A DNA stretch of 64,000 nt from Minisyncoccota bacterium (GCA_041659085.1 JBAZYZ010000001.1:4884-68883), one strand, 5' to 3'. Positions 294 to 61,041 are shown, counted from the stretch's first letter. Notes: generated by a model not told the origin, from the sequence alone. Translations and numbers: made by a program.

Positions 294-3200
294 ATGAATT
301 TGTTTTCAACAAGAAATAAAGTATTCTTGTTCGTAGCAATAACAGCATTGTCTCCATTTTTTGTTTTTGCTCAATCCCAAAATCCTATTTGTTCACGCAC
401 AGGATATACGATTGAGGCACTCAATGGAGTATTCACCAATAGGGAAGGGGCAGTTGAAAACAGTAGTGCTTTACAACGTAAGTTACCGCCCACATACCAC
501 AACGAGCCTTTAACAGTTGACTATATTCTTAACCCCTCCCACCTAGGCGGCTTGGGGGACATTGCTAAGGCTGTGGAGCAAAAAGTTTTTGATTATGAAA
601 CGGTAGAGGACTATGACCTTACGAACATGCTCATTGACGCGAGTCAAAAAGTAAAAACTCAAAAACTCCTGCTAATTGGCCATTCCCAGGGTAATTTTTA
701 TGCCAACTCCATCTATGATAAGTTGGCCGGGAAACAAGGAGGGGTTCCCAAAGAATCAATCCGTGTTTATTCCGTAGCCACGCCATCAGCGCGTGTGGCC
801 GGGGAAGGCAAATGGCTCACTTCCGATACAGACAAGATTATTTCCGGTCTCGTGGCTCGTGTTCTGGGGAGAGACATTAAAAAACCTAATATTCACATTG
901 ACCTTGGTCCTAATGGCGTAGGTCACAGTTTTTCCGAGGTGTATTTAAAGTACCAGCCCGGACGAATTATTTCCGACATTGAAGCTTCACTCCAGCAACT
1001 TAAGGAAAATGATGTTCAGAATGAAATCAGTCCGTGCTTTACTCCGCCAGATGTTACTTCCGCCTATAAAGTACAGGGAGCGTTGCTTACGGTCACGGAC
1101 TTTGCATCCGATAGAATCGCGTATGGAGTAACGTCCACCGCAAAAGTTGTTCGCGATACCGGCTTGGCGTTAGGCGGCATTGTGAATCAGACCGCATCAG
1201 CTGTACTGTCCATAACCACCGGTCGAAGCGAGAATTCCACGGACAATAACCAAAAACAAGTTGCTGCGGCGGCTGTTACTCAAAACAAAAATAACGACAC
1301 CACCGCTCCGTCCGGCGAAGACACGGCAATAGTTGATTCCGCTCTAATTTCTCCACCCGCTAACTTGGAAGCCGAACTCCCAAGTAGAGCAGGGTCGCCC
1401 AACTTGGAGGCTCAGCCTCCAAGCGTCGCGCAAACTAACAATCCTCCAACCCCGCAAATTAATTTCAGCATGTCGCCCGGGTTTGGGGGTGGTGGAGGGG
1501 GCACGCCTGCGATAGTGAATGATGTCCGGCAACAAATGGATAGTGGTGATACAGATGAGGCCACTACTGCAGCTTCCACAACTTGCGATGATTTATTGGC
1601 AACTAATTTCGGCGGTTCTTTACCATGCTTGTACCCGCCAGAAGCTCCGCTTAAACCCACAATAATTTCCCCCACAGATTTTTCCGCGCCGTTTGCCACG
1701 ACTACGCTCACGTTTGTCGGCACATCTTCGCCAGGTTTTATTATTTCAAACACTCTAACCAGCGCCACTACGACCGCAGATGGCGCAGGCGGTTGGACTC
1801 TAGTTTTTAGTAATCTTTCCGAAGGCGACATGAATATAAATTTTATCGCCACCGATTTATCCGGCGCGACTTCTACCCCAAGTCAAATTTCTTTTAATAT
1901 AGTTTTGCCGCGCCCCAATCCTCCTTTAATTTCTTCACCCACATTCCCGCTTCAGATTATGAACTCCCAATCAATTACTTTCATGGGCTCTACCACCCCC
2001 GGCTTTTCCGTATCTAACAATTACACAGACGCTACCACTACCGCCGATTCTTCCGGTTCTTGGTCTTTTTCTTTTATTAATCTTTCTGAAGGCACAACTA
2101 CAATAAGTTTTTACGCAACAGACATGACCACAAACGTGTGGCCAGCCGGACTCCAATCGGAGGCAAGAACAGTTTCGTTTAATGTTTTTAACTATTCACC
2201 CCAAGCGAGCGGTCCATCAGTCGGTGAGTGCGCGTATTCCCTGACACCCTACCCTGACTGCTATCTTCCTGCCGGACAGGCCACTCTTTCGTGGGCAGTA
2301 AATTCCCCAAATTATAGATATTTTGAAATCATGCGGGGCACTTTTAGCTTTACCACGGGGCGGACAGCCTATTCTCTTTTTGCCACGACTACCGCGACTT
2401 CAACGGTAATACAAACAACAGAGACGGATTCCTCGTATGTTTTTCAGGTACGTAGTGTTGATATTTTCGGGACGATTCAAGACGCGAATAGTCAGGTTAC
2501 TTTTTATATGGCCCATTCCCCGCCAGTTTCCATAACTGAAGTCGCCTGGGCTGGTACAGCCGCCTCACCGGGAGACCGGTGGATTGAATTGAAAAACAAT
2601 TTTGACTTTGGCATTGACCTTTCTCTTTTCCGGCTTACTTCCGACTCAGGCTTAAACAGAGTTCTTTCTGGAATCATACCCGGACTCGGCTACGCAATCA
2701 TTGATTTGAGCCAGGATGGGCGCGCCTTAACGGGCGTTTCTACCGCTTCAACTTCCGTACCGTATTTTCTCTCTGCAAGCGGCGATGTCCTCTACTTGAT
2801 ATACGACGGGGGAGTTTCCACTACAACTATTGATCAAACACCACCGGTCGCAGGTTGTGGCGGCTGGTGCGGCGGTTCCACTTCCAACTACATGACCATG
2901 GAAAGACGGCAGGTGGAAACCGCCGGCTCAGATAAAAATAATTGGCTGTCAAACAACGCCACTACTGTAAATGGTGGAGATAGAAACGGTGCCGCCATAA
3001 ACGGCACGCCTGGCACGCAAAATAGCGTGTCAATGGGAGGAGTCGGTTTCTATTGCTCACCCTACAGGACGAGTTTTGTGGAAGGAGGAATTTATTTGCC
3101 AAACGTGTCCTCGTCTGGTTATGCGGACTGCTTCTTTTTGTCTCCGGGTTTGTCCGGTCTTCGGGTCGGAGGTCTCTATAAGGGAGTATTGGGGAACTCA

Positions 3201-3437
3201 ACATACCTTGATGGGTGGTATAACAATGGTGATCAAAATGCATCCCGCCATCAAAGTTTAAATATTGGCCAGCCTAATTTAGGCGACAATTATTTCTCTG
3301 TCGTCAGAGAGCTCCATAATCCTTCTATCAGCGCCGAGGAAAGAGCGTCCTTTGATGATTTCTTTACCGGGTCAAACGGTGTTGTTTCTCCGCCGTACTC
3401 AAATTACGAAATCATAAATTGGAAGTACGGGTTGTAG
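294..3437 (+). CDS. large secreted multidomain surface protein: signal peptide, alpha/beta-hydrolase (lipase/esterase-like, GHSQG nucleophile elbow), S/T/P/G-rich linker, two tandem ~80-aa Ig-like repeats, C-terminal lamin-tail domain (LTD)
   Basis: ATG at 294; 1047-aa ORF; N-terminal hydrophobic signal peptide; 'LLLIGHSQGNF' GXSXG motif; internal repeats PTDFSAPFATTTLTFVGTSSPGFIISN... / PTFPLQIMNSQSITFMGSTTPGFSVSN...; 'ITEVAWAGTAASPGDRWIELKNN' LTD-like motif. Confidence 0.8.
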   Translation: MNLFSTRNKVFLFVAITALSPFFVFAQSQNPICSRTGYTIEALNGVFTNREGAVENSSALQRKLPPTYHNEPLTVDYILNPSHLGGLGDIAKAVEQKVFDYETVEDYDLTNMLIDASQKVKTQKLLLIGHSQGNFYANSIYDKLAGKQGGVPKESIRVYSVATPSARVAGEGKWLTSDTDKIISGLVARVLGRDIKKPNIHIDLGPNGVGHSFSEVYLKYQPGRIISDIEASLQQLKENDVQNEISPCFTPPDVTSAYKVQGALLTVTDFASDRIAYGVTSTAKVVRDTGLALGGIVNQTASAVLSITTGRSENSTDNNQKQVAAAAVTQNKNNDTTAPSGEDTAIVDSALISPPANLEAELPSRAGSPNLEAQPPSVAQTNNPPTPQINFSMSPGFGGGGGGTPAIVNDVRQQMDSGDTDEATTAASTTCDDLLATNFGGSLPCLYPPEAPLKPTIISPTDFSAPFATTTLTFVGTSSPGFIISNTLTSATTTADGAGGWTLVFSNLSEGDMNINFIATDLSGATSTPSQISFNIVLPRPNPPLISSPTFPLQIMNSQSITFMGSTTPGFSVSNNYTDATTTADSSGSWSFSFINLSEGTTTISFYATDMTTNVWPAGLQSEARTVSFNVFNYSPQASGPSVGECAYSLTPYPDCYLPAGQATLSWAVNSPNYRYFEIMRGTFSFTTGRTAYSLFATTTATSTVIQTTETDSSYVFQVRSVDIFGTIQDANSQVTFYMAHSPPVSITEVAWAGTAASPGDRWIELKNNFDFGIDLSLFRLTSDSGLNRVLSGIIPGLGYAIIDLSQDGRALTGVSTASTSVPYFLSASGDVLYLIYDGGVSTTTIDQTPPVAGCGGWCGGSTSNYMTMERRQVETAGSDKNNWLSNNATTVNGGDRNGAAINGTPGTQNSVSMGGVGFYCSPYRTSFVEGGIYLPNVSSSGYADCFFLSPGLSGLRVGGLYKGVLGNSTYLDGWYNNGDQNASRHQSLNIGQPNLGDNYFSVVRELHNPSISAEERASFDDFFTGSNGVVSPPYSNYEIINWKYGL

Positions 3438-8704: not shown

Positions 8705-12378
<3,674 letters not shown>

Positions 12379-12473
12379 CATTGCAAAAATACAATTAAAA
12401 AGAGTCGCGGAAAAAATTCCGCGCCTCGCACAAGCGCGTGACGCGCGTTTATGCGAGGCGCGAAAGTGTTTTG

Positions 12474-12549
12474 GGGTCTGTAGCTCAGTTGGGAGAGCGC
12501 TACGATGGCATCGTAGAGGTCACCGGTTCGATCCCGGTCGGGTCCACCA
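12474..12549 (+). tRNA. tRNA-Ala (anticodon GGC), CCA encoded
   Basis: Manual cloverleaf: acceptor gggtctg/cgggtcc with G3:U70; anticodon loop atGGCat; T-loop ttcgatc. Confidence 0.8.
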
Positions 12550-12593
12550 AAACATTTTTCGCCTCAAAGTTCGTCCCCGGCGAAAGTCGGCGA

Positions 12594-12666
12594 GTGGCCA
12601 TAGCTCAGCCTGGCAGAGCATCGGGCTCATACCCCAATGTCCTTGGTTCAAATCCAAGTGGCTACT
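12594..12666 (+). tRNA. tRNA-Met (anticodon CAU; elongator Met or Ile-lysidine type)
   Basis: acceptor gtggcca/tggctac; anticodon loop ctCATac; T-arm cttgg-ttcaaat-ccaag; one C-A mismatch in the anticodon stem; no encoded CCA. Confidence 0.65.
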
Positions 12667-12698
12667 CGGTTTAGATTTTTAAAAAAGTCGGGGTGTAG

Positions 12699-12772
12699 CT
12701 CAGCCCGGTAGAGCGTCTCCTCGGGGAGGAGAATGTCGGGGGTTCGAATCCCTTCACCGCGACCCGCCCGAA
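12699..12772 (+). tRNA. tRNA-Pro (anticodon GGG)
   Basis: C1-G72 pair typical of tRNA-Pro; anticodon stem tctcc/ggaga with loop tcGGGga; T-loop ttcgaat; one acceptor mismatch at 3:70. Confidence 0.6.
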
Positions 12773-12852
12773 CGGATTCATCCGGTAGGGCCACAGTTCT
12801 TTGTTTTATTTTTTTAACTCATTTTCGCGCAACTTAGCGCGTGATTGAGTGT

Positions 12853-12970
12853 CTTGTTCTGGTGATTTAATACAAGGGTCACACCTCTTCCCATTCCGAA
12901 CAGAGTCGTTAAGCCTTGCTATCGCGATGATACTCCTTGCGGGGAAAGTAGCTATCGCCAGAACAAGATA
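12853..12970 (+). rRNA. rrf: 5S ribosomal RNA
   Basis: helix I tcttgttctggtg / cgccagaacaaga; conserved cccattccgaacagag and gcggggaaagtag blocks. Confidence 0.75.
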
Positions 12971-12979
12971 CTCAAAAGT

Positions 12980-13007
12980 AAAAAACGCCCAAGAGGGCGT
13001 TTTTTAC
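12980..13007 (+). terminator. rho-independent terminator closing the 23S-tRNA-5S unit
   Basis: aaaaaacgcccaagagggcgttttttac. Confidence 0.75.
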
Positions 13008-13043
13008 TTGCCTACAAAGGTCAAAAGCTATAAGCTGGAAGTT

Positions 13044-13817
13044 ATGGATTGGTCCACGAAGAGAAAACTTACATACCTTTCAATTTTATTGCTCGTCATT
13101 TTGGTGGTCGCCGCTTATTTTCTGTACCCATTGTTTATAGAAAATCCGACCTGCTCCGACGGGAAACAAAATGGCGATGAAGTCGGAGTAGACTGCGGCG
13201 GTATATGCAACAATTTTTGCGCTTCCCAGGTCCGCCCCCTTAGTATTATTTGGCAGCGTTCGTTTGAGGTTGCGCCCGGCATTTATGACGTTCTCGGATA
13301 CGTGGAAAATCAAAACGCTGACGCCGGGGTGTCATCCCTTCTTTACAGGTTCAAACTCTACGATGATAAAAATGTTCTTATTGCCGAGCGCGATGGAAAA
13401 ACTTTCATTGGACCTAATCAGTCCGGGGCAATATTTAGCGGCGGCATAAATACGGGAGAGAGGATTCCTAAGCTCGTTTATTTGGAATTTGAAGATTATC
13501 AATGGACAAAGATAGACCCGCGTTTTTTGAAAATAAATTTTTCAGTTAAAAATCAGCAACTACTCAATGCTTCAACCAGCCCGCGATTGGCTGTTTCCGT
13601 GGGAAACGAATCTCTTACTGATTTAAGAAATGTTGAGGCAGCCGCGATTTTGCGCGACCAGGATGACAATGCCATCGCGGTAAGCAATACGGTTATAGAA
13701 AGTCTGCCCAAACAAAGTTCCAAGGATATTTTTTTCACCTGGCTGACTCCGCTCGAATTGCCTGTCGCAAGGATTGAGATAATTCCGCGTGTTAACCCCT
13801 TTACGGTTTCTTATTAG
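13044..13817 (+). CDS. membrane-anchored extracytoplasmic protein, hypothetical
   Basis: ATG at 13044 (the listed ORF start at 12849 overlaps the 5S rRNA); N-terminal TM helix, then 'CSDGKQNGDEVGVDCGGICNNFC' Cys-rich segment. Confidence 0.6.
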   Translation: MDWSTKRKLTYLSILLLVILVVAAYFLYPLFIENPTCSDGKQNGDEVGVDCGGICNNFCASQVRPLSIIWQRSFEVAPGIYDVLGYVENQNADAGVSSLLYRFKLYDDKNVLIAERDGKTFIGPNQSGAIFSGGINTGERIPKLVYLEFEDYQWTKIDPRFLKINFSVKNQQLLNASTSPRLAVSVGNESLTDLRNVEAAAILRDQDDNAIAVSNTVIESLPKQSSKDIFFTWLTPLELPVARIEIIPRVNPFTVSY

Positions 13818-21801: not shown

Positions 21802-22123
21802 AGTGAAGCGTCTAGAGGTAGACGGCTTTTAATTTGTAATTGCCCGATACTTTCTGGAACGTGTGAACTTTGACAAGATCCATAGTGCCCGATGGCTTGA
21901 ATAACCGTCGGGTAGAAAGGATCCACATAGTTAGTGCAAAATCACAACTCCGCCGGAGACAGCCTGTCTCTGGTGGTTAAAAAAATTCCAGTTTTAATCG
22001 AGTAGATTAAATTGGGACAAAGAAACCCGCCTCGTTTTTTACAAAACGATTCGGGCAGGTATTTTTTCTTTTGTTCCGCCTAATAATTTTTCGAAATTTT
22101 AATTTCACAAAATTTTCATTTAG

Positions 22124-23650
<1,527 letters not shown>

Positions 23651-23884
23651 ATTGAAAATGTTCGAGATTTATTTCGAATTCTTGGCCGGTGTTTATGCTT
23701 CACAAGGGCATAAATGGGTAATTATTGCCAAAACCCTAATTCGCAATACATTGCTCTGGATGTACCAGAGCAGAAAACCTAGCGTGGGAACGCAAAGGTT
23801 GGACGGAACAAAAGAAAGAATATTAACCCGCCTAAATTTTTGCGAACAAAAATTTTGGTGGGTAAGCACTAACTATAAGTCATC

Positions 23885-32163: not shown

Positions 32164-33438
32164 ATGAAAAGAATTTTTAAGGGGAAACATTTTTTTGTCG
32201 GAGCGTCCCTCGGCGTTTTTGCCGTGGCTGGTTATTTGGGACTGTCATTTATACCAGGCGAAACATACAGTTCGGAAGGCGGGTTGGAGGCGCTTGCGAC
32301 TAGCTCTGCAGACAAAATTGTTGAAGTAAAAAACACGGATGGTAAAAGCGCTAATTTCCAGGCAGTTGCGCATATGGAGACACCAGAACCGCTCAAGGCG
32401 ATTTATATGACCGCCTGTGTCGCAGGTACTCCGTCCTGGCGCGAACGTATGGCAAAATTGGTTGAGACGACGGAATTAAACTCAATCATTATTGATATCA
32501 AAGATTATAGCGGCGCCATCTCAATTGAAACAAATAACCCTATCTTTAAGGATAATGTCGGCAAAGGTTGCCGGGTAAAAGATATGCGGGAATTCGTGTC
32601 GTTTCTGCACGACAAAGGCATATATGTAATAGGGCGTATTACCGTTTTTCAGGACCCATATTACACAAAAGCTCACCCGGAACTGGCGGTGAAAAAAATG
32701 TCCAACAAGGAAGTTGTATGGAAAGACCGCAAAGGACTTTCTTTTATAGATGTCGGAGCCAAGCCTTATTGGGATTATATCGTAGAGCTTGGCAAAGAAT
32801 CTTACGATATGGGTTTTGATGAACTGAATTTTGACTACATCCGTTTCCCGTCCGATGGCGATATGAGGGACATCTACTTCTCTTACGGCGTGGGAAAAAC
32901 AAAAGCTGAGGCGCTGGAAGAGTTCTTTATATACCTTAATGACCAACTGAAGCCAATTGGCGCTGTTTTGTCCGCCGATTTGTTTGGCATGACAGCGACC
33001 AATAATGACGACCTCAATATCGGGCAGGTTCTTGAACGCGCTCTCCCGCATTTTGATTACGTGTCGCCGATGGTTTATCCGTCGCATTACCCGACCGGTT
33101 TCAACGGCTGGAAAAACGTTAATGCCCATCCGTATGACATTGTTAAGTTCTCGCTTGCTCGCGCGGTGGAGAGGACCGAGGCAACCACGACGGCGGTTAA
33201 CTTTTTGGGAGCGGCAATCATATCCTCGGGAACTACCACGAAGAGTGTTATATACGCGAAGGAGCCTTACCCTAGGGGGAAAATCCGCCCGTGGCTGCAG
33301 GATTTCAGCTATCCCGTAACATATACGCCGGAGATGGTGAAAGCGCAGATACAAGCGACATATGATGTAGGCCTCACTAGTTGGATGCTCTGGGACCCGG
33401 CCAATAAATATACTCCCAGTATTTTGCTGAAGGAGTAA
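32164..33438 (+). CDS. putative glycoside-hydrolase-like TIM-barrel protein (DUF4015/YngK-like), N-terminally membrane-anchored
   Basis: N-terminal TM helix; '...NSIIIDIKDYSG...GIYVIGRITVFQDP...GFDELNFDYIRFP' resembles GH-like (GHL) families. Confidence 0.5.
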   Translation: MKRIFKGKHFFVGASLGVFAVAGYLGLSFIPGETYSSEGGLEALATSSADKIVEVKNTDGKSANFQAVAHMETPEPLKAIYMTACVAGTPSWRERMAKLVETTELNSIIIDIKDYSGAISIETNNPIFKDNVGKGCRVKDMREFVSFLHDKGIYVIGRITVFQDPYYTKAHPELAVKKMSNKEVVWKDRKGLSFIDVGAKPYWDYIVELGKESYDMGFDELNFDYIRFPSDGDMRDIYFSYGVGKTKAEALEEFFIYLNDQLKPIGAVLSADLFGMTATNNDDLNIGQVLERALPHFDYVSPMVYPSHYPTGFNGWKNVNAHPYDIVKFSLARAVERTEATTTAVNFLGAAIISSGTTTKSVIYAKEPYPRGKIRPWLQDFSYPVTYTPEMVKAQIQATYDVGLTSWMLWDPANKYTPSILLKE

Positions 33439-33584: not shown

Positions 33585-33986
33585 ATGAAACGCAACAAAC
33601 TGTTGTCCCTCGCGTTGGTAGCTCTGGCAATCAGCGTCGGCGCCTCCAGCGTATTCGCAGCCTCGAATCCGACCGTCGGCGGCGTCGATCAAGCGACCAC
33701 CACCAAGACTTTCACCAACCCGGCGCCCGTGGCTGCGGGTACCAACACCGGCGCGCGCGAGGCCGTGGCCAGTCCGACCGTCAACGTGAAGCCGGCAGCA
33801 GCGACCATCAGCGCGCAGAAAGCGACCACCGCCAGCGCCAAGGACCAGATCGCCGCCAAGGCCGTCTCGCTCGATTCGGCAACCGCCACCGCCACCGCTG
33901 CGGTCAATGCCGGCCTCGTTCTCGCCGTCGCGCATACGGTCGACGCCTCCGCCAACCCGGCAGCAATGGTACCGCTGCTGAACTGA
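33585..33986 (+). CDS. secreted Ala/Thr-rich low-complexity protein encoded in a GC-rich (~64%) segment
   Basis: AAGGAG SD 6 nt before the ATG; signal peptide MKRNKLLSLALVALAISVGASSVFA|A; GC3-rich codons (gcc/acc/ggc/gtc) contrast with flanking ~40% GC. Confidence 0.65.
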   Translation: MKRNKLLSLALVALAISVGASSVFAASNPTVGGVDQATTTKTFTNPAPVAAGTNTGAREAVASPTVNVKPAAATISAQKATTASAKDQIAAKAVSLDSATATATAAVNAGLVLAVAHTVDASANPAAMVPLLN

Positions 33987-34014: not shown

Positions 34015-34038
34015 ACCCCCCTCTTCGGAGGGGATTTT
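34015..34038 (+). terminator. rho-independent terminator
   Basis: cccccctcttcggaggggattttt. Confidence 0.7.
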
Positions 34039-34145: not shown

Positions 34146-36032
34146 ATGTCAGACCAGGATAAAATCACATATATCGGGGAGACCGATTTTCGCAATAAAA
34201 AAATAAAATTTGGCATCAAGGCCAAAGATCGGACGCGCCATGTTTACATCATCGGTAAGACGGGCATGGGTAAGTCCACGCTTCTTGAAAATATGGCGGT
34301 GCAGGATATTGTGAACGGCGAAGGCATGGCTTTCATAGACCCTCACGGTGGCACAGCGGAAAAGCTTCTGGACTATATCCCCGAGAGCCGCGTCAAAGAT
34401 GTTATTTATTTTGCCCCGTTTGACGCGGATTACCCGGTTTCTTTCAATGTGATGGAAGACGTCGGCGCCGATAAGCGGCATCTGGTGGCAAACGGACTCA
34501 TGAACGCTTTCAAAAAAATCTGGGTGGATGCCTGGAGCGCCCGCATGGAATATATTTTAAACAATGTCCTCTTGGCTCTTCTTGAATACCCCGATTCCAC
34601 GATTCTAGGCGTCAACCGCATGCTCTCCGACAAGGATTACCGCAATCTGGTGGTGGCAAATGTTACCGATGCTTCGGTAAAGTCTTTCTGGGTGGATGAG
34701 TTCGCCAAATATGGCGACAAATATATGCAGGAAGCCGGCGCGGCGATTCAGAATAAAATAGGACAGTTTATCTCCAACCCGCTTATAAGAAACATAATCG
34801 GCCAGCCTAAATCTTCCTTTGATATAAGGAAGATAATGGATGAGAAAAAAATTCTCATCATGAACCTTTCCAAAGGAAGGATGGGTATTGAGAACTCTAC
34901 GCTCTTGGGCAACATGCTGGTAACCAAAATTTACCTCGGGGCAATGTCGCGCGCGGACGCGTCCGCTTCTCTGTTGCAAAAACTCCCAAATTTTTACTTC
35001 TATGTTGACGAATTTCAATCTTTTGCCAACGAATCGTTTGCCGATATTTTGTCTGAGGCGCGCAAATATAAGTTGTCGCTTACCATAGCGCACCAGTATG
35101 TGAATCAGATGCCGGAAGAGGTAAGAGACGCGGTTTTCGGCAACGTGGGTTCTATGGTTACTTTTCGCATCGGTCCGGAGGATGCCGAATTATTCGAAAA
35201 AGAATTTGCCCCTGAATTCATAGCGGATGATTTGGTTAATCTGGGGTTTTCTCAGATATATCTCCGTCTTATGATAGACGGGATAGGTTCCAAGCCGTTT
35301 TCCGCCACGACATTGCCTCCGATCGCGCAGGAGAGAGAGTCCCATAAAGACGAGGTCATAGATGGGACCAGAAAAATTTACGCGACTCCGCGAACGAAGG
35401 TTGAAGGATTCATAAACAAATGGTATGAGTCGGTTGCGCCGCCCAAAGCGCCAAGGGAAAGGAAAGATAAAGACGCCCCGGAGCAACCCGCTTCTCCGCG
35501 CGAATTCAAAAACGATGTGGCCGGATCCGGGTCAAGGCCGGCTCCGGATAAAAAACCGGTCGACCACATTATCCGGGAAGAAATTAAAGTCGGACATACG
35601 ACACCAGTTGCTCCTCGGGAAATCCCGCATGAGGCCCAAAAATGGCCCACGATGAATGATAAAGCGGGTGTGAGTAATGTCGATAGAACGCCCAAAAACA
35701 GGCCGTTTATAGCTAAAATAGAGCCCAAGCCGATAACACCTGTTTCTTTGAGTCAGCTTAAGCCTGAGGCTGTAAAAGGGCAGTCAAGGAACTCAATGGC
35801 CTTAAAGGAGGCGTTGGCTGCCGCTCTCAAAGAAAAAGTTGCCGTCCCGTTTTCATCCGAACCAAAAAAAGAAGTTCCAACAAGCAGTGTTCCCCAAAAT
35901 ATACCTGAGGCTACGGATGGCGGACTAAGACAGGAAGAAAAAAAGTGGGAAGAGATGAAAAAACATCACGATACCCCAAAAGCTCCAAAGGAAATTCCGG
36001 AAGATGTTTTGAGAAAAATATTAAACGAATAA
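34146..36032 (+). CDS. TraG/VirD4/HerA-superfamily P-loop ATPase (type IV coupling-protein-like, no N-terminal TM segment) with ~230-aa disordered K/P/E-rich C-terminal tail
   Basis: Walker A 'IIGKTGMGKSTLL'; 'AFIDPHGG'; Walker B 'FYFYVDEFQSF'; 'SLTIAHQYVNQMPEEVRDAVFGNVGSMVTFRIG' resembling T4CP motifs; low-complexity tail. Confidence 0.65.
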   Translation: MSDQDKITYIGETDFRNKKIKFGIKAKDRTRHVYIIGKTGMGKSTLLENMAVQDIVNGEGMAFIDPHGGTAEKLLDYIPESRVKDVIYFAPFDADYPVSFNVMEDVGADKRHLVANGLMNAFKKIWVDAWSARMEYILNNVLLALLEYPDSTILGVNRMLSDKDYRNLVVANVTDASVKSFWVDEFAKYGDKYMQEAGAAIQNKIGQFISNPLIRNIIGQPKSSFDIRKIMDEKKILIMNLSKGRMGIENSTLLGNMLVTKIYLGAMSRADASASLLQKLPNFYFYVDEFQSFANESFADILSEARKYKLSLTIAHQYVNQMPEEVRDAVFGNVGSMVTFRIGPEDAELFEKEFAPEFIADDLVNLGFSQIYLRLMIDGIGSKPFSATTLPPIAQERESHKDEVIDGTRKIYATPRTKVEGFINKWYESVAPPKAPRERKDKDAPEQPASPREFKNDVAGSGSRPAPDKKPVDHIIREEIKVGHTTPVAPREIPHEAQKWPTMNDKAGVSNVDRTPKNRPFIAKIEPKPITPVSLSQLKPEAVKGQSRNSMALKEALAAALKEKVAVPFSSEPKKEVPTSSVPQNIPEATDGGLRQEEKKWEEMKKHHDTPKAPKEIPEDVLRKILNE

Positions 36033-36048
36033 AAATAAGTGTTCTGTC

Positions 36049-37491
36049 GTGAACTACAGAAGCATAATAATTTTTTTATGTTTTGTTCAGTTGATTGCGC
36101 CGTCTCCGGTGCGCGCTGGTATTATATTTTCGGAAATAATGTACGACTTGGACGGTTCTGACACCGGCCGCGAGTGGGTGGAAATTTTCAACGATAGTGG
36201 CAGCAGTATTGATTTAACCGGTTGGAAGTTTAATGACGGATCCAATCACGTACTTAACATTCCGCCCAAAAATGGAAGCTCGGGTTCCATGGTGGTTCCT
36301 TCCGGCGGATACGCTGTCTTTGCGGGCGATGCCGTCGTATTTTTGAGCGAATACCGCGGATTTGCGGGAACTGTTATCGACACGGCGATGAGTCTCGGTA
36401 ACTCAAGCTCAACGCTCTCGATTATTGATTCAAACGGCTCTGTTGTTGATTCTGTTTTATACGATAAATCCGCCGGCGCGAACGGAGACGGAAACTCTTT
36501 GCAAAAAAATATAAACGGCGCGTGGGTTGCCGCCGCGCCGGTCCCTGGCGCGGGGTCGTTTGTTATTTCCGGTCAAAACGAGACAAGTTCTCCTCCCGAT
36601 AATGATATTTCTCCAGCGCCGGTATCTTCGGGGGGAGGGGATACAAGATGGTTGGTGGAGCCGCAGGTATTTGCCGACGCCGGCAAGGATAGGGCGGTTA
36701 TTGTAGGCGCTTCAGCTGTGTTTGAAGCCAAGGCATTCGGTCTCAAGAAGGAGCCGCTTGATAACGCCAGATATCTTTGGAATTTTGGCGATGGGGCTAT
36801 CGGGGAAGGAAAAATGGCCGAACACACATATCGGCACCCCGGGGATTATTTGGTTGTGGTGGAAGTTGCCTCAGGCTATTACTCGGGTGAAGACCAGCTT
36901 AAGGTGCGGGCGGAAGCTTCGCCGCTTTCGGTTTCGGCGATTACTGACGGCTCGGGTTATTTTGTGGAACTTTCCAATCCCTCAAACACCGACATCAACA
37001 TTTCGCACTGGGGGCTCGCGCTCGCGGATAAAGTTTTTGCCATCCCCAAGAACACTTTCGTGATGGCGGGCAAAAAACTTATTTTCCCGAATGAAGTAAC
37101 CGGACTTTTGGTCGGGGCGGGAAGCGCGCCGGAGCTTCGTTATCCGAATGGGACTTTGGCAAGCAGGTTTGGCGAAGTAAAAAATAAATCGGCTGAGGTG
37201 GCTGTTCAAATGACGCCAAAATCGGAGCAGCAGGGGATTTCCAATAGAGATATGCCGGCGGATAATGGAGTGAGAATTGCTCAGGCGGAAGAAAACGATT
37301 CAGGGAAGGAGAACATGGCCGCCGTATCAGAGAGTTTGCCGAAAAAATCTTCAACAAAATACATTTGGCTTTTCGGGGTAGTTGGTATTTCCGCCCTGGC
37401 TCTCTCGGGGGTGTTTTTGGCGCGCAGGCTTGAACAACCGAATGACAGGCTTAAAAAACTCGCGGATGAAATAGAAATTATTGAAGAATAG
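36049..37491 (+). CDS. cell-surface protein: signal peptide - lamin tail domain - PKD domain - second LTD - C-terminal TM anchor
   Basis: GTG start 16 nt after the upstream stop; 'GIIFSEIMYD...GREWVEIFNDSGSSIDLTGWKF' LTD; 'YLWNFGDGAIGEGKMAEHTYRHPGDYLVVVEV' PKD; 'GYFVELSNPSNTDINISHWGLA' second LTD; C-terminal 'IWLFGVVGISALALSGVFLA'. Confidence 0.75.
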   Translation: MNYRSIIIFLCFVQLIAPSPVRAGIIFSEIMYDLDGSDTGREWVEIFNDSGSSIDLTGWKFNDGSNHVLNIPPKNGSSGSMVVPSGGYAVFAGDAVVFLSEYRGFAGTVIDTAMSLGNSSSTLSIIDSNGSVVDSVLYDKSAGANGDGNSLQKNINGAWVAAAPVPGAGSFVISGQNETSSPPDNDISPAPVSSGGGDTRWLVEPQVFADAGKDRAVIVGASAVFEAKAFGLKKEPLDNARYLWNFGDGAIGEGKMAEHTYRHPGDYLVVVEVASGYYSGEDQLKVRAEASPLSVSAITDGSGYFVELSNPSNTDINISHWGLALADKVFAIPKNTFVMAGKKLIFPNEVTGLLVGAGSAPELRYPNGTLASRFGEVKNKSAEVAVQMTPKSEQQGISNRDMPADNGVRIAQAEENDSGKENMAAVSESLPKKSSTKYIWLFGVVGISALALSGVFLARRLEQPNDRLKKLADEIEIIEE

Positions 37492-52750: not shown

Positions 52751-54727
52751 ATGGTTTTTATTGCTGTAAAACTATTTCTGTTTTTATTTGCAGTCATTTC
52801 TTTTGGCTATTTGGCGAGTTTTCTTTTTTTGAAAGAAAGAAAAATTTCCACCCTTATTCCGTTCTCTGTCCTTATCGGCGTAAGCGGATATGTATTTTTC
52901 GTCAACACATTTTCTTATTTTGTCGGAGTTAAGGAGGTTGTGTGGCTGGTATTACTACTATTTGTACTGTTTATTTTTTATCAAATTTACGCAAAGGGGA
53001 TAGGGGGATTTCGTCCGGAAATTGATTTAACAGGGAAAGAGTCTAAAATTCTTTTTAGTCTGGCAATAATAATTTCAATAACATCGGGGATTGTCGCCTT
53101 AAGAGCCCTTGACCCGGACGGATACGTTCATTTGACATTTTCCTCAACTATAAGTGAAGGGAATTTCCCTCTTATGAATCCGGTAGATCCAGACACGCTT
53201 ATTCCGTATCACTACGCGCCGGATTTGCTTTCTGCCGCGATGCATAGAGTAACCGGCGTCTCGCTATTGTGGGGTTACAATATTCAGACTTTCTTCTTTA
53301 GCGGCCTGACTTTTTTACTCGCTTTTATTTTGGCTTTTTATGTGACCGGAAGATTTTACACTTCAATAATTGCGTCTTTGTTTTTCTTCTTTGGAGCGGG
53401 GGCTCTTTTTTTGAATATTACACACGGATTTTCTCCCCTCTATCACAAGTATATTTTGGGTGAAAACGCAGTTGGCGCATGGAAATTTGTGGCCGAGATG
53501 CTTTGGCCTAAGATAAATAATTTTTATACTTATGCAATTAGAAATTACACAACGGTTATGGGCACGCCGATAATGCTTTCTGTCATATACTTATATTTTA
53601 AATTCATTGATGAAGGCAAAACTCAAATCAAAAAAATAATTATTGCAGGACTCCTTCTCGGTTTTTTGGCATTAAGCCTGGAAACAAATTTTGTTATACT
53701 GTCGTTCGTTTTAGGGCTATCCCTGCTCTATAAAATCTATTTGTTGTCTTGCAATAAGAACGATGATTTGAGAGAAAGGTATCTCAATGGCGTAAAAGTA
53801 ATAGTCCTTGTTTTGTTCATAGGTTCGGCAGTTGCGTATATGCAGGGAGGGGTTATAACCGCTTCTTTGAAGAGCGATAAAGGTGTCGTTGCCGGCCAAA
53901 GCTCCGGAGTTGGTGGGCGGCAGAGTTTTGTCTTGAATGGCAACCCTTCAGAACTTATAATTTCGCGTCAGGGAGAAGACAAGGTTCCAATATTTAGTTT
54001 GACCTTTTTAAAAGAATTCGGCCTTACTCTTATTTTGTTTCCGTTGGCAGTTTTTGTTTTCAGGAGAGATAAAAAAATATTATTTTTATCGTCAGTCGGC
54101 CTGACAGCTTTTTTGATTCCAATTTTCGTTATCTACGCTTCTTGGCCAGGGGAATTGGCCAGGGTATTTGTTGTATCTACTACAATTTTTTCTTTTGTTT
54201 CCGCTCTTTTTATCTGTCTTCTCTACGGTAAGTATAAAGAAAACATAAAAATTAAATCTATTTTGATTACCATCTCTTTGATGGTAATATTTGGTGGACT
54301 TTCTTTCCAATTAGTTTCTATGGTTACCCCGTACAGTAATTTTGGCAAGATTAGAGTTCCTTTTGCGGCGAGTCTTCCCGCGCTTTCTGATACTGACAGC
54401 AGGGTTTATGAATGGGTACGCGCCAATACAGTCAATTCATCCAGGTTTTTCCCCTACAATCAAAGATTAATAATTGAGACGGGCAGAATGTCTCCAAGCG
54501 ATATCGTTGGATTTGTCCCGAAGTATAAAATTCCGATTTACAAAGATATTGCTGATAATTGCGGGACAGATTCAATAAAGAAACTGGGAATAAATTATTT
54601 TGTCTTGTCTCCGGGCGGTTTTTCCAAGGAAAGTTTTCTAGGCAAATGTTCCTCACTTAATTCCGGTTTAGTTTTTAGCGTTAAGGAGGGCGGGGATTAT
54701 CGGGAGATTTACCAGATAAAGAATTAA
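52751..54727 (+). CDS. large polytopic membrane protein (~13 TM plus extracytoplasmic C-terminal domain); candidate GT-C-type glycosyltransferase/polymerase
   Basis: 658 aa; many hydrophobic helices; soluble C-terminal ~130 aa; no firm family motif identified. Confidence 0.6.
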   Translation: MVFIAVKLFLFLFAVISFGYLASFLFLKERKISTLIPFSVLIGVSGYVFFVNTFSYFVGVKEVVWLVLLLFVLFIFYQIYAKGIGGFRPEIDLTGKESKILFSLAIIISITSGIVALRALDPDGYVHLTFSSTISEGNFPLMNPVDPDTLIPYHYAPDLLSAAMHRVTGVSLLWGYNIQTFFFSGLTFLLAFILAFYVTGRFYTSIIASLFFFFGAGALFLNITHGFSPLYHKYILGENAVGAWKFVAEMLWPKINNFYTYAIRNYTTVMGTPIMLSVIYLYFKFIDEGKTQIKKIIIAGLLLGFLALSLETNFVILSFVLGLSLLYKIYLLSCNKNDDLRERYLNGVKVIVLVLFIGSAVAYMQGGVITASLKSDKGVVAGQSSGVGGRQSFVLNGNPSELIISRQGEDKVPIFSLTFLKEFGLTLILFPLAVFVFRRDKKILFLSSVGLTAFLIPIFVIYASWPGELARVFVVSTTIFSFVSALFICLLYGKYKENIKIKSILITISLMVIFGGLSFQLVSMVTPYSNFGKIRVPFAASLPALSDTDSRVYEWVRANTVNSSRFFPYNQRLIIETGRMSPSDIVGFVPKYKIPIYKDIADNCGTDSIKKLGINYFVLSPGGFSKESFLGKCSSLNSGLVFSVKEGGDYREIYQIKN

Positions 54728-59313: not shown

Positions 59314-61041
59314 ATGGAGAAAATTACCAAAATAATTCAGGAATACCGCTTTGTTTTGCTTCTAGCCGTTTTTTGTGGCGCTGTCTATGTGGCACCCCAT
59401 TTGTTTTTTAAGATTACCCTTGGGAACTCCTTCCACGGCATTGAACTTACACCAAGGGATGCGGAGACACATTACCTGTCAATGCTGAATGAGGTCAAAC
59501 AGGGATACCTTACCCATAGCAGCACATATTTGTATGAATATAAGGATAGTAAAGTGTCCCCGATTGAATATTCCGAGACATTTTACGGGACGATAATAAA
59601 ACTTTTCAATCTTGGAGCTCCTGGATTTTATTTATTTTGCGAGTTCTTTTTTCCGGTAGTTATATTTTTACTTTGGTATTATTTTTCCTTGCTTGTTACC
59701 AAAAACAAAAGGAGCGCTATTTTGTCAGCTCTTTTTTTAATGTTCGGTACCTACATTTTAAGCAACGTAAGCATCATAAAACAATTTGATATTTTATTTT
59801 GGAAGACGGCAAACATACCTCTCCTTGCCTACGGCAGAATTATAAATCCATTACTTACATTCCCATTCTTTTTTGCCGGTCTAATCTTCGCTTATAAGCT
59901 GTTCTCTGAGAACACAAAAAAAATGGCGGTCTTTTCCGGCATAGCTCTGGGAATAATGTTTTATGTCTATTTTTACTTTTGGACATATTTTTTAGCCCTG
60001 AGTTTTTTAATGCTGGTGTTCGGAGTGTCGAAAAAAGAGTGGCAATTGGTGAAAAATATTTCTCTAAGTATTTCTATATCTCTGCTCATTGGTTCATATT
60101 TTATTGTCAGTATGATAAAGACGGTCGTTAGTTCAGTTGGGGTTCAATCCGGAGGCTCATTATCTCCATATGTTTTTGCCTTAAGCCATAATCCGTCCCT
60201 GCCGTCCTTGGTGGTTTTGGGAGTGGCGTTATTTTCTTTTTTTATTTATTTGAGGAGGAGAAAGGGGATACCATTGGAGAGAGGGGATGCATTCATCTTT
60301 CTCCTGTTATCTACTGCCGTAGTTGTTGTTAATCAGCAGATAATAACTGGACGGTCTGTTGAACCGGGACACTTTCATTGGTATGCGAATGTGCCGGTTT
60401 TCTTTTTAACTGTAAGTTATATCATTGTCGACTTGTTGGGAAAAATAAGAATAAGATATCTTGGCAAAACGTTATTTATAATTTTATGTTTATATCTAAT
60501 CACGTTTGGCATAGGTACACAGGTTTCCGGATATAAACAGAGGTTTGATAATTTTTCTTATATTCAGAAATACGGAGCTGTCTTCGACTGGTTCAATAGG
60601 AATACGGAAAAAGAATCGGTTATTTTTGGCGGAAACGGATTTTCGGATCTCACTCCTGCATATACCCAAAATAATGTCTATTTTGCAGCTTACGGGGCTT
60701 ACTACCCGTCTAATCCGCTCGAACGCAGAATTCATACCGCATACATTTATTATTTCTTGGATAATAAAAAGGAGGACATTTTGCAAAAGATTTATCCATC
60801 CTTAACTTCAAATGGCTGTGTCAGCGCCGGATGTGTTGATTCTGACATTTTTGCAAAAACTATGGCTAATTATGGAGAATTTTTAAAGACGCCATTTTAT
60901 GAAAATTTGAAAAAATATAGGGTAGACTATATGGTCTGGGACAAAAACACGAACCCTTCATGGAATTTGGATAAGTTTAGTTTCTTAAAACCAGTCTATA
61001 ATTATGATAATGTTCTGGTTTATAAAATTTTAAACAAATGA
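59314..61041 (+). CDS. large polytopic membrane protein with extracytoplasmic C-terminal domain; candidate GT-C glycosyltransferase/polymerase
   Basis: 575 aa; ~11 TM helices then ~170-aa soluble domain; no firm family motif. Confidence 0.55.
   Translation: MEKITKIIQEYRFVLLLAVFCGAVYVAPHLFFKITLGNSFHGIELTPRDAETHYLSMLNEVKQGYLTHSSTYLYEYKDSKVSPIEYSETFYGTIIKLFNLGAPGFYLFCEFFFPVVIFLLWYYFSLLVTKNKRSAILSALFLMFGTYILSNVSIIKQFDILFWKTANIPLLAYGRIINPLLTFPFFFAGLIFAYKLFSENTKKMAVFSGIALGIMFYVYFYFWTYFLALSFLMLVFGVSKKEWQLVKNISLSISISLLIGSYFIVSMIKTVVSSVGVQSGGSLSPYVFALSHNPSLPSLVVLGVALFSFFIYLRRRKGIPLERGDAFIFLLLSTAVVVVNQQIITGRSVEPGHFHWYANVPVFFLTVSYIIVDLLGKIRIRYLGKTLFIILCLYLITFGIGTQVSGYKQRFDNFSYIQKYGAVFDWFNRNTEKESVIFGGNGFSDLTPAYTQNNVYFAAYGAYYPSNPLERRIHTAYIYYFLDNKKEDILQKIYPSLTSNGCVSAGCVDSDIFAKTMANYGEFLKTPFYENLKKYRVDYMVWDKNTNPSWNLDKFSFLKPVYNYDNVLVYKILNK

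Follow-up and report, generated by a model that had tools for sequence, protein, structure and literature searches.

A stretch of 64,000 nucleotides (nt) of a Minisyncoccota bacterium (GCA_041659085.1, JBAZYZ010000001.1:4884-68883; the whole stretch is called the window in the following, with positions counted from its first letter) contains on the forward strand, at 34146-37491, a gene for an ATPase related to the type IV coupling proteins (T4CPs), directly followed by a gene for a membrane protein with two lamin-tail domains (LTD) and a PKD domain. The ATPase is a divergent member of the T4CP family that lacks a transmembrane domain (TMD) and has no recognisable orthologue among the plasmid T4CPs, and the LTD gene is its neighbour much more often than chance would allow, whichever of the two genes is used for the search and with different flanking genes. 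We tentatively read the two proteins, at slightly less than an even chance, as a split T4CP, in which a cytoplasmic ring ATPase would be tethered by its tail to the LTD surface protein and act on a polymer at the membrane.

The ATPase gene (34146..36032; assigned from the open reading frame (ORF), Pfam, Foldseek and homologues) encodes a short form of 628 amino acids (aa), in which all the Walker and T4CP-like motifs quoted in an earlier note on this sequence are present. Its core (aa 1-430, 34146..35435) consists of a nucleotide-binding domain into which an all-helical domain is inserted (helices at approximately aa 108-218), modelled by AlphaFold2 on 112 homologues with a predicted local distance difference test score (pLDDT) above 90. 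In the alignment of 112 sequences, to which all conservation values for the ATPase refer, about 125 core positions are invariant. The Walker A motif GKTGMGKST (aa 37-45, 34254..34280) is mostly invariant, with G42 and T45 conserved in at least 90% of the sequences, and within the Walker B motif FYFYVDEFQ (aa 283-291, 34992..35018) V287-D288-E289-F290-Q291 are invariant. Further motifs are TIAHQ at aa 313-317 and FGNVGS at aa 331-336. To judge from its sequence, the ATPase is catalytically intact. The absence of N-terminal transmembrane (TM) helices, as previously claimed, is likewise borne out, as the highest 19-residue Kyte-Doolittle mean of the protein is 1.02 and, since Walker A begins at residue 37, there is no space for an N-terminal membrane domain.

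Classification by hidden Markov models agrees with the initial description of the protein as a TraG/VirD4-like coupling ATPase. Two T4CP families of Pfam are passed, TrwB_AAD_bind (PF10412) with 31.2 bits at a cut-off of 20.5 and T4SS-DNA_transf (PF02534) with 30.5 bits at a cut-off of 20.1, while the HerA central domain DUF87 lies marginally above its cut-off (25.6 vs 23.2 bits) and TraG-D_C (PF12696) just below (21.7 vs 22 bits). The sequence profile of the ATPase family retrieves only TrwB from the PDB. TrwB is also the first Foldseek match of the model (E 1e-13), followed by Cag-beta and DotL and then by HerA and VirB4, with E values of 1e-13 to 1e-11 spanning TrwB, Cag-beta and DotL. Compared with TrwBdeltaN70, about 415 columns are aligned with a TM-score of 0.61-0.64 normalised to TrwB, at approximately 14% identity. 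In the model, the counterpart of the all-alpha domain of coupling proteins is the helical block (aa 108-218) that separates Walker A from Walker B.

The models for conjugative T4CP equivalogs in NCBIfam score far lower than their cut-offs, with 41.9 bits for conju_CD1115 (cut-off 250) and 36.8 bits for SXT_TraD (cut-off 366). Together with weak matches to HerA models and to mad8 of PADLOC (47.7 bits), the match to conju_CD1115 would speak for a conjugation gene of a mobile element or for an anti-phage defence ATPase of the HerA type. This reading is given next to no credence, as all NCBIfam scores remain far under cut-offs of 250-650 bits, no relaxase, integrase, VirB4 or defence partner is located nearby, the GC content resembles that of the flanks and the chromosomal synteny is stable over hundreds of species. 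No type IV secretion system (T4SS), pilus, competence, relaxase or integrase genes were found in the 64-kb window, no VirB4, NurA, Sir2 or other defence partners in the neighbourhood of the ATPase, and no T4SS or relaxase linkage was apparent from the clusters of neighbours that recur in 80 related loci, the main ones of which were identified. The ATPase and LTD genes have a GC content of 47-50%, as compared with 47% for the upstream DUF4015 gene and 44.5% for the window on average. With only the weak mad8 and HerA P-loop matches and no partner genes, a defence system was rejected, as was, with low NCBIfam scores, stable synteny and neither relaxase, VirB4 nor integrase, a conjugative or mobile element.

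The ATPase is a chromosomal, vertically inherited core gene under strong purifying selection. At least 8000 homologues are present in the protein database, the best 120 of which show 55-86% identity, with all the named ones among these belonging to Patescibacteria/Paceibacteria, and a scan of GTDB with one genome per species recovers at least 595 loci. With the 16S rRNA methyltransferase RsmI as a housekeeping yardstick, the mean identity to the window proteins over the same genome pairs is 72% for the ATPase core, 62% for RsmI, 55% for DUF4015 and 37% for the LTD protein. An ATPase-LTD locus of the Paceibacteria type, with 73% identity of the ATPase over the best aligned segment (aa 3-426), is also present on a contig assigned to a Flavobacteriaceae metagenome-assembled genome (L022, JBLHIK010000012.1); this contig is probably mis-binned.

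The partner gene (36049..37491, forward strand, GTG start) encodes a type-I membrane protein of 480 aa. A signal peptide or signal-anchor at aa 1-23 (36049..36117; hydrophobic window aa 5-23, helix aa 3-16), which is kept in homologues, is followed by an ectodomain (36121..37167, from Pfam and AlphaFold2) composed of LTD1 (aa 25-162), a Ser/Pro-rich linker, the PKD domain (aa 208-289) and LTD2 (aa 294-373). Pfam LTD (PF00932) matches two stretches with 86.2 bits at a cut-off of 34.3 (E 2.5e-24) and the PKD domain is matched with 44-48 bits (E 2e-12); in the AlphaFold2 model the beta-sandwich domains reach a pLDDT above 90 and the linkers are disordered. A C-terminal TM helix at aa 438-458 (37360..37422; Kyte-Doolittle mean 2.2), modelled at aa 439-461 and conserved in position in homologues, precedes a predicted cytoplasmic tail of about 20 aa, RRLEQPNDRLKKLADEIEIIEE (37423..37488), with a basic stop-transfer cluster and then an acidic-aromatic/aliphatic motif. 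The very end ADEIEIIEE (37462-37488) follows the pattern [DE][DE][FYI]x[IL][IL][DE], and most of the aligned LTD homologues end alike. With the two LTD, the PKD domain, the signal-like helix and the C-terminal TM helix, the secreted, membrane-anchored protein described earlier as encoded 16 nt downstream of the ATPase is recovered in full.

NCBI, which names the product 'lamin tail domain-containing protein', has a model of 460 aa (P0121) that begins 20 codons downstream of the start of the 480-aa ORF, omitting window positions 36049-36108, and the gene call of a Logan contig uses the 480-aa ORF; as the conserved signal peptide is removed by it, the NCBI start is probably mis-annotated. With respect to a ligand, Foldseek searches with the ectodomain give only generic PKD, immunoglobulin (Ig) and S-layer folds and no clue. 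LTD domains have been associated with extracellular nucleases, which is not used as evidence here, and in the literature searched no link of LTD domains to DNA uptake or nucleases was found.

Within the 16-nt spacer of the window no terminator-like hairpin was found. In a forward test on 80 species representatives, 75 of them with enough downstream sequence to judge, a same-strand LTD-PKD-LTD gene directly 3' of the ATPase is present in 37, scattered over the ATPase tree. For the reverse test, 80 metagenomic loci were collected by the LTD protein with a scan based on a 10-sequence alignment, and the ATPase is located directly 5' of the LTD homologue in 47 of the 65 loci with enough upstream sequence. 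With refined start codons, the two genes are separated by a median of 2 nt, and they overlap in 36 of 76 pairs. As DUF4015 is absent upstream in 14 of the 37 paired loci (15 if locus L002 is counted), the ATPase-LTD pair is retained in other contexts; it is also observed in sigma-factor/DUF5667 contexts, and the complete Nomurabacteria genome CP064973 is an example without DUF4015. The earlier note had named two outcomes as contrary to its proposal, an unrelated P-loop family with a housekeeping role and an unconserved adjacency; the ATPase is classified with the coupling proteins and the adjacency is conserved.

Two observations concern the LTD genes themselves. In L002, the locus of CP064973, the LTD gene (12030-13453) is split, with the TM helix and the tail ADEFELIEE encoded by an overlapping ORF of 75 aa, a frameshift that is either real or a sequencing error. 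Furthermore, an LTD-PKD-LTD subfamily with tails of the type GDDF[EK][IL][LI]DE is encoded apart from the ATPase (loci L122, L132, L147, L149, L152, L154, L157, L158 and L161), in a conserved block with putative genes, annotated by eye, for a ribulose-phosphate epimerase-like protein, an apparently split transketolase and a pfkB-like sugar kinase. As this motif-bearing subfamily (for example GDDFEILDE) sits away from the ATPase, the LTD and ATPase partners may be unlinked in some genomes.

The adjacency could alternatively be no more than the inherited gene order of an envelope region (RsmI-DUF4015-ATPase-LTD-glycosyltransferases), without a complex and with a role of the ATPase in envelope or glycan biology or otherwise independent of LTD. 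The whole block is indeed syntenic across Paceibacteria, in the order RsmI, a small TM protein, DUF4015, ATPase, an optional LTD gene and glycosyltransferases. DUF4015, a putative secreted glycoside hydrolase (32164..33438, forward strand, Pfam E 6e-89), which as an upstream neighbour is treated as context only, lies at most four genes upstream of the ATPase in 50 of the 73 species representatives that could be evaluated; its distance to the ATPase start is often 10-100 nt. Glycosyltransferase/epimerase genes are located downstream in most related loci, directly 3' of the ATPase where LTD is absent; the homologous glycosyltransferase genes come after the ATPase, or after the ATPase-LTD pair, in most related genomes, and the window itself runs on into a glycan cluster of about 25 kb. 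On the other hand, the pair persists with quite different flanks, including the 14 (15) loci without DUF4015, its gaps are operon-like and the tail classes described below co-vary. We also know of no ATPase of the T4CP, FtsK or HerA type in glycan synthesis or export, which is a further point against inherited gene order as the sole explanation, and this alternative is considered quite unlikely.

What points to a physical link, and thereby beyond gene order to a split T4CP, are the ends of the two proteins. The ATPase core is followed by a Pro/Lys/Glu-rich tail (aa 431-628, 35436..36029; P 13.6%, K 13.1%, E 10.6%) which varies in length and sequence among species, giving a gappy alignment, with a pLDDT below 50 over most of aa 453-614. 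The disorder previously assigned to this tail stands, while its proposed length of 230 aa has to be reduced to about 200 aa, and the tail is not featureless as it contains conserved helices. Short helices are modelled at aa 548-564, 595-605 and 619-625. The first of these, predicted to be amphipathic, is part of an internal motif at aa 532-564 (PVSLSQL...NSMALKEALAAALKEK, 35739..35837), which reads ...VSLSxL...NxSxLKxAL... across the aligned ATPases; L553 and L557 are nearly invariant and the helix block has a pLDDT of about 76 within the disordered region. The last helix is a candidate docking helix within the C-terminal motif PKEIPEDVLRKILNE (aa 614-628, 35985..36029), assigned to class A, in which E616 is invariant and P618, E619, L622 and L626 are at least 90% conserved. 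Across the aligned ATPases the extreme C-terminus is PKEVPEDVLRKILE-like.

A search for a TM helix plus the acidic-aromatic motif in 3885 ORFs of the neighbourhoods gives 20 matches; 18 of these are members of the LTD family, and one more is a tail split off from such a member. A function of the tail as a general sorting signal is unsupported, as among these 3885 ORFs, all from neighbourhoods, the motif is confined to the LTD family. Co-variation of the tails was scored on non-redundant pairs; with crude regular expressions the association was only weak, and a clear pattern emerged with refined motif classes inspected row by row. In approximately 65 pairs with an ATPase end of the EVPEDVLRKIL type (class A), the LTD protein carries the motif in 47 and a close variant of it in about nine. 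The LTD tail is short and without the motif in all five pairs with the ATPase end ILKPGxKIKF (class B) and in all four with LERMMRV (class C). The variant ends form separate clades in the ATPase tree, and ATPases without a neighbouring LTD gene mostly retain the classical end. The LTD tail motif and the C-terminal class of the ATPase seem to pattern as expected of co-evolving docking peptides.

Relatives of the ATPase provide a second line of evidence on anchoring. Searched exhaustively, the ATPase core has 21,953 matching cluster representatives at E <= 1e-3, of which 5,754 reach E <= 1e-30. Many of the top 150 are long forms of approximately 750-1200 aa, in which the ATPase (46-55% identity) begins at residue 300-460. 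In the aligned long forms the N-terminal extension comprises one or two TM helices (absent in P0319 and P0341) and a domain of about 350 aa, which is DUF8128 (PF26449) according to precomputed Pfam annotation; searches of local sequence libraries of Pfam, NCBIfam and the PDB gave no match to the domain, and no literature on it was found. No separate DUF8128 homologue is encoded in the window or in 160 related loci, even at E <= 10. The named long-form members belong to Berkelbacteria and other Patescibacteria (loci L163-L170), with two tandem long-form paralogues in Berkelbacteria. An LTD neighbour is present in none of six long-form contexts. As the self-anchored form has no LTD partner, whereas the anchorless form often has one, a role of the LTD protein as an anchor in trans fits these observations. 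The C-terminal tails of the long forms are disordered and some end ILKPG/IKPGxxIxF-like, as in class B of the short form. With respect to the cargo, a Sigma70_r4 plus HARE-HTH protein is encoded immediately upstream in four of the six long-form contexts and the long form P0395 has a C-terminal S1 RNA-binding domain (E 6e-20); these DNA/RNA-binding associations and the family membership of the ATPase give a weak hint at nucleic acid.

The long forms are found next to ftsQ, murB/C, ddl and murG, or next to secDF and L10/L12. The proximity to division and wall genes, with murC, murD and ftsW in the window, is shared by the short form and is compatible with a housekeeping DNA translocase of the FtsK type for chromosome clearance or segregation at division, which would have an inverted layout of motor, linker and partner-borne membrane attachment. 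FtsK has a long disordered Pro-rich linker between membrane anchor and motor, and the shared fold superfamily, the long Pro-rich linker and the core-gene behaviour of the ATPase would be in line with such a function. However, the best matches in sequence and structure are T4CPs, Pfam FtsK_SpoIIIE gives 12.6 bits against a cut-off of 24, no gamma or KOPS-reading domain of FtsK was found in the ATPase, and at least one cultured patescibacterium has an ftsK gene with an annotation of its own (PMC10768705). As an LTD ectodomain is also unexpected for a septal DNA pump, this explanation appears distinctly improbable.

As a split T4CP, the pair might work as follows. A RecA-like ring ATPase in the cytoplasm would be held on a flexible tether of about 200 residues, the C-terminal amphipathic helix of which, EIPEDVLRKIL, may dock on the LTD tail ADEIEIIEE. 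The co-translated LTD-PKD-LTD protein would thus supply the membrane anchor and recruit the ATPase, and its Ig-like ectodomain would bind something outside the cell, be it a host surface, a glycan or a polymer. Presumably as a hexamer, the tethered ATPase would accept a polymer at the membrane, most probably a nucleic acid, and thread it at the expense of ATP as rings of the T4CP, FtsK and HerA type do; the channel might be provided by the chromosomally dispersed T4SS of Patescibacteria or be a different one. DNA uptake or transfer and surface-protein export, as considered in the earlier note, stay hypothetical functions. The LTD protein itself has its own Sec-type signal, and therefore its export is unlikely to require the ATPase.

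Several observations weigh against this mechanism. About half of the species keep the class A end of the ATPase without an adjacent LTD gene, and the co-variation of the tails rests on two independent switches or clades only, which is why shared ancestry could explain it. A ring on six single-pass helices is no obvious channel, so another translocon is needed. The hints at nucleic acid stem from the long-form relatives and not from the ATPase of the window, and the conserved flanks, the DUF4015 hydrolase and the glycosyltransferase cluster, point equally to envelope biology. Finally, the T4CP homologue of Southlakia epibionticum, the one genetically tractable patescibacterium, is reported to be non-essential for epibiotic growth, where the T4SS is essential (PMC12102498).

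Alternatively, the ATPase could simply serve the dispersed chromosomal T4SS as its T4CP, and the LTD protein would be a bystander or an accessory adhesin that shares the operon by chance. A VirB4-based T4SS is widespread in Patescibacteria, usually near dnaA, with the T4CP homologues mostly located elsewhere (PMC12102498), and Gram-positive T4SSs employ surface adhesins instead of pili (PMC7434980). As the ATPase belongs to the T4CP family, these features are compatible with such a role. The same survey, however, counts only 148 of 5,713 VirD4-like T4CP homologues, from 2,918 Patescibacteria genomes, near virB4, and its authors raise exaptation (Quinonero-Coronel et al. 2025, PMC12102498), and the non-essential T4CP homologue alongside an essential T4SS (PMC12102498) is a difficulty here as well. 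A core more conserved than a housekeeping methyltransferase is unusual for T4CPs, and the matched tail motifs argue for LTD as a specific partner. Taken as an explanation of its own, the T4SS assignment is unlikely, if by no means negligible; it overlaps with the split T4CP, and is partly compatible with it, because a split T4CP could feed the T4SS.

At the other extreme, the ATPase-LTD pair, possibly together with the DUF4015 wall hydrolase, could be a self-contained machine independent of a T4SS, importing a polymer captured by LTD, for example host or environmental DNA, in the service of nucleic-acid scavenging; the ring ATPase, docked by its tail, would drive or gate this uptake. Little credence is given to this proposal. 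The candidate minimal module of the earlier note is not supported as minimal and self-contained, since in half of the related species no LTD gene stands next to the ATPase.

A further neighbour had been brought into connection with the pair, a GC-rich gene for a secreted protein. The gene exists (33585-33986, forward strand, 66% GC, with a strong AAGGAG ribosome-binding site) and encodes an Ala/Thr-rich protein of 133 aa, but it is of no relevance for the pair as it is not conserved elsewhere. Since other genomes lack it between DUF4015 and the ATPase and since it is followed by its own terminator-like hairpin (34018-34033), it was rejected as part of a module and is a lineage-specific insertion that constitutes a separate transcription unit.

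The remainder of the window contains 23S, 5S and 16S rRNA genes, tRNAs, L10, ftsW, secDF, murD, murC, rsmI and the glycan-synthesis cluster. The latter, a surface-glycan biosynthesis cluster of about 25 kb at 38859-64000, encodes NAD-dependent epimerases, a UDP-glucose dehydrogenase, at least six glycosyltransferases of family GT4 along with GT2 and GT9 members, an asparagine synthase, six methyltransferases and an LPG_synthase_TM protein. The order of the rRNA genes, which are not linked, is unusual, with 23S (8716-12368) followed by three tRNAs and 5S (12858-12963) and by 16S approximately 9 kb further downstream (22115-23652). The 23S match of 3653 nt compared with a model of 2925 nt indicates approximately 730 nt of insertions, possibly introns. 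Large ORFs without a Pfam family above threshold are located at 52751-54727 (658 aa), 59314-61041 (575 aa) and 294-3437 (1047 aa); the 1047-aa protein has a sub-threshold Ig-like (Big_13) match and a weak match to the LTD-PKD-LTD profile.

With respect to significance, Patescibacteria (the Candidate Phyla Radiation) are ultra-small bacteria that account for a large part of bacterial diversity, live in attachment to other cells and contain thousands of orphan coupling-protein genes (PMC12102498). A split T4CP, if true, would provide the first defined interaction partner for the orphan T4CP-type ATPases of this group and would connect a translocation motor in the cytoplasm with an Ig-like receptor outside the cell. 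The short peptides EVPEDVLRKIL and DDFEIIE would then be usable for mutation or as baits. The split into short forms and long forms with DUF8128 would represent two solutions, within one phylum, for the anchoring of a common motor, and if the import of nucleic acid were true, it would constitute an unrecognised scavenging route in organisms unable to make nucleotides. In any case the locus is a concrete, testable lead on the role of orphan coupling proteins in Paceibacteria. The earlier note had called the function undescribed. This applies in part: orphan T4CPs (PMC12102498) and a T4CP subfamily without TMD (PMC7434980) are known, while the LTD pairing appears to be unreported, as do the matched tail peptides and the short/long split in anchoring; the level of conservation is an addition of the present analysis.

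Among the known systems, the closest in layout is found in the recognised T4CP subfamily 'lacking TMD', the members of which are accompanied by a small adjacent membrane protein. In TraJ (Orf10) and TraI (Orf9) of plasmid pIP501, a VirD4-type domain without an N-terminal TMD is encoded next to a membrane protein that is thought to provide the attachment (PMC7434980). The likeness of the window ATPase to TraJ is one of layout, and the ATPase differs by its tail of about 200 disordered residues with conserved peptides. In contrast to TraJ/TraI, it is chromosomal and a core gene, located outside a tra/T4SS operon and with no relaxase nearby. Unlike TraI, which is small and polytopic, the LTD partner is encoded downstream and is a single-pass protein of 480 aa with an LTD-PKD-LTD ectodomain.

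With TrwB of R388, VirD4, Cag-beta and DotL, the ATPase shares the fold of the soluble part and the all-helical insertion between Walker A and Walker B, but differs from the canonical T4CPs by the low identity (approximately 14% to TrwB), the lack of an N-terminal TMD and the lack of T4SS linkage, and it evolves much slower than typical plasmid T4CPs. FtsK/SpoIIIE and HerA belong to the same superfamily of additional-strand conserved-glutamate (ASCE)/RecA-like ring ATPases, with weaker matches to the window ATPase than the T4CPs. Unlike HerA, the ATPase has no N-terminal barrel with a NurA partner and no NurA-like neighbour; unlike FtsK, it has neither a gamma domain nor a polytopic N-terminal domain. 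The long forms have the ATPase core in common with it and differ by their own membrane segment, DUF8128 and the absence of an LTD neighbour. The orphan T4CPs of Patescibacteria surveyed previously, in a text that contains no occurrence of LTD or transmembrane features (PMC12102498), are almost certainly the same set of proteins as the family of the window ATPase.

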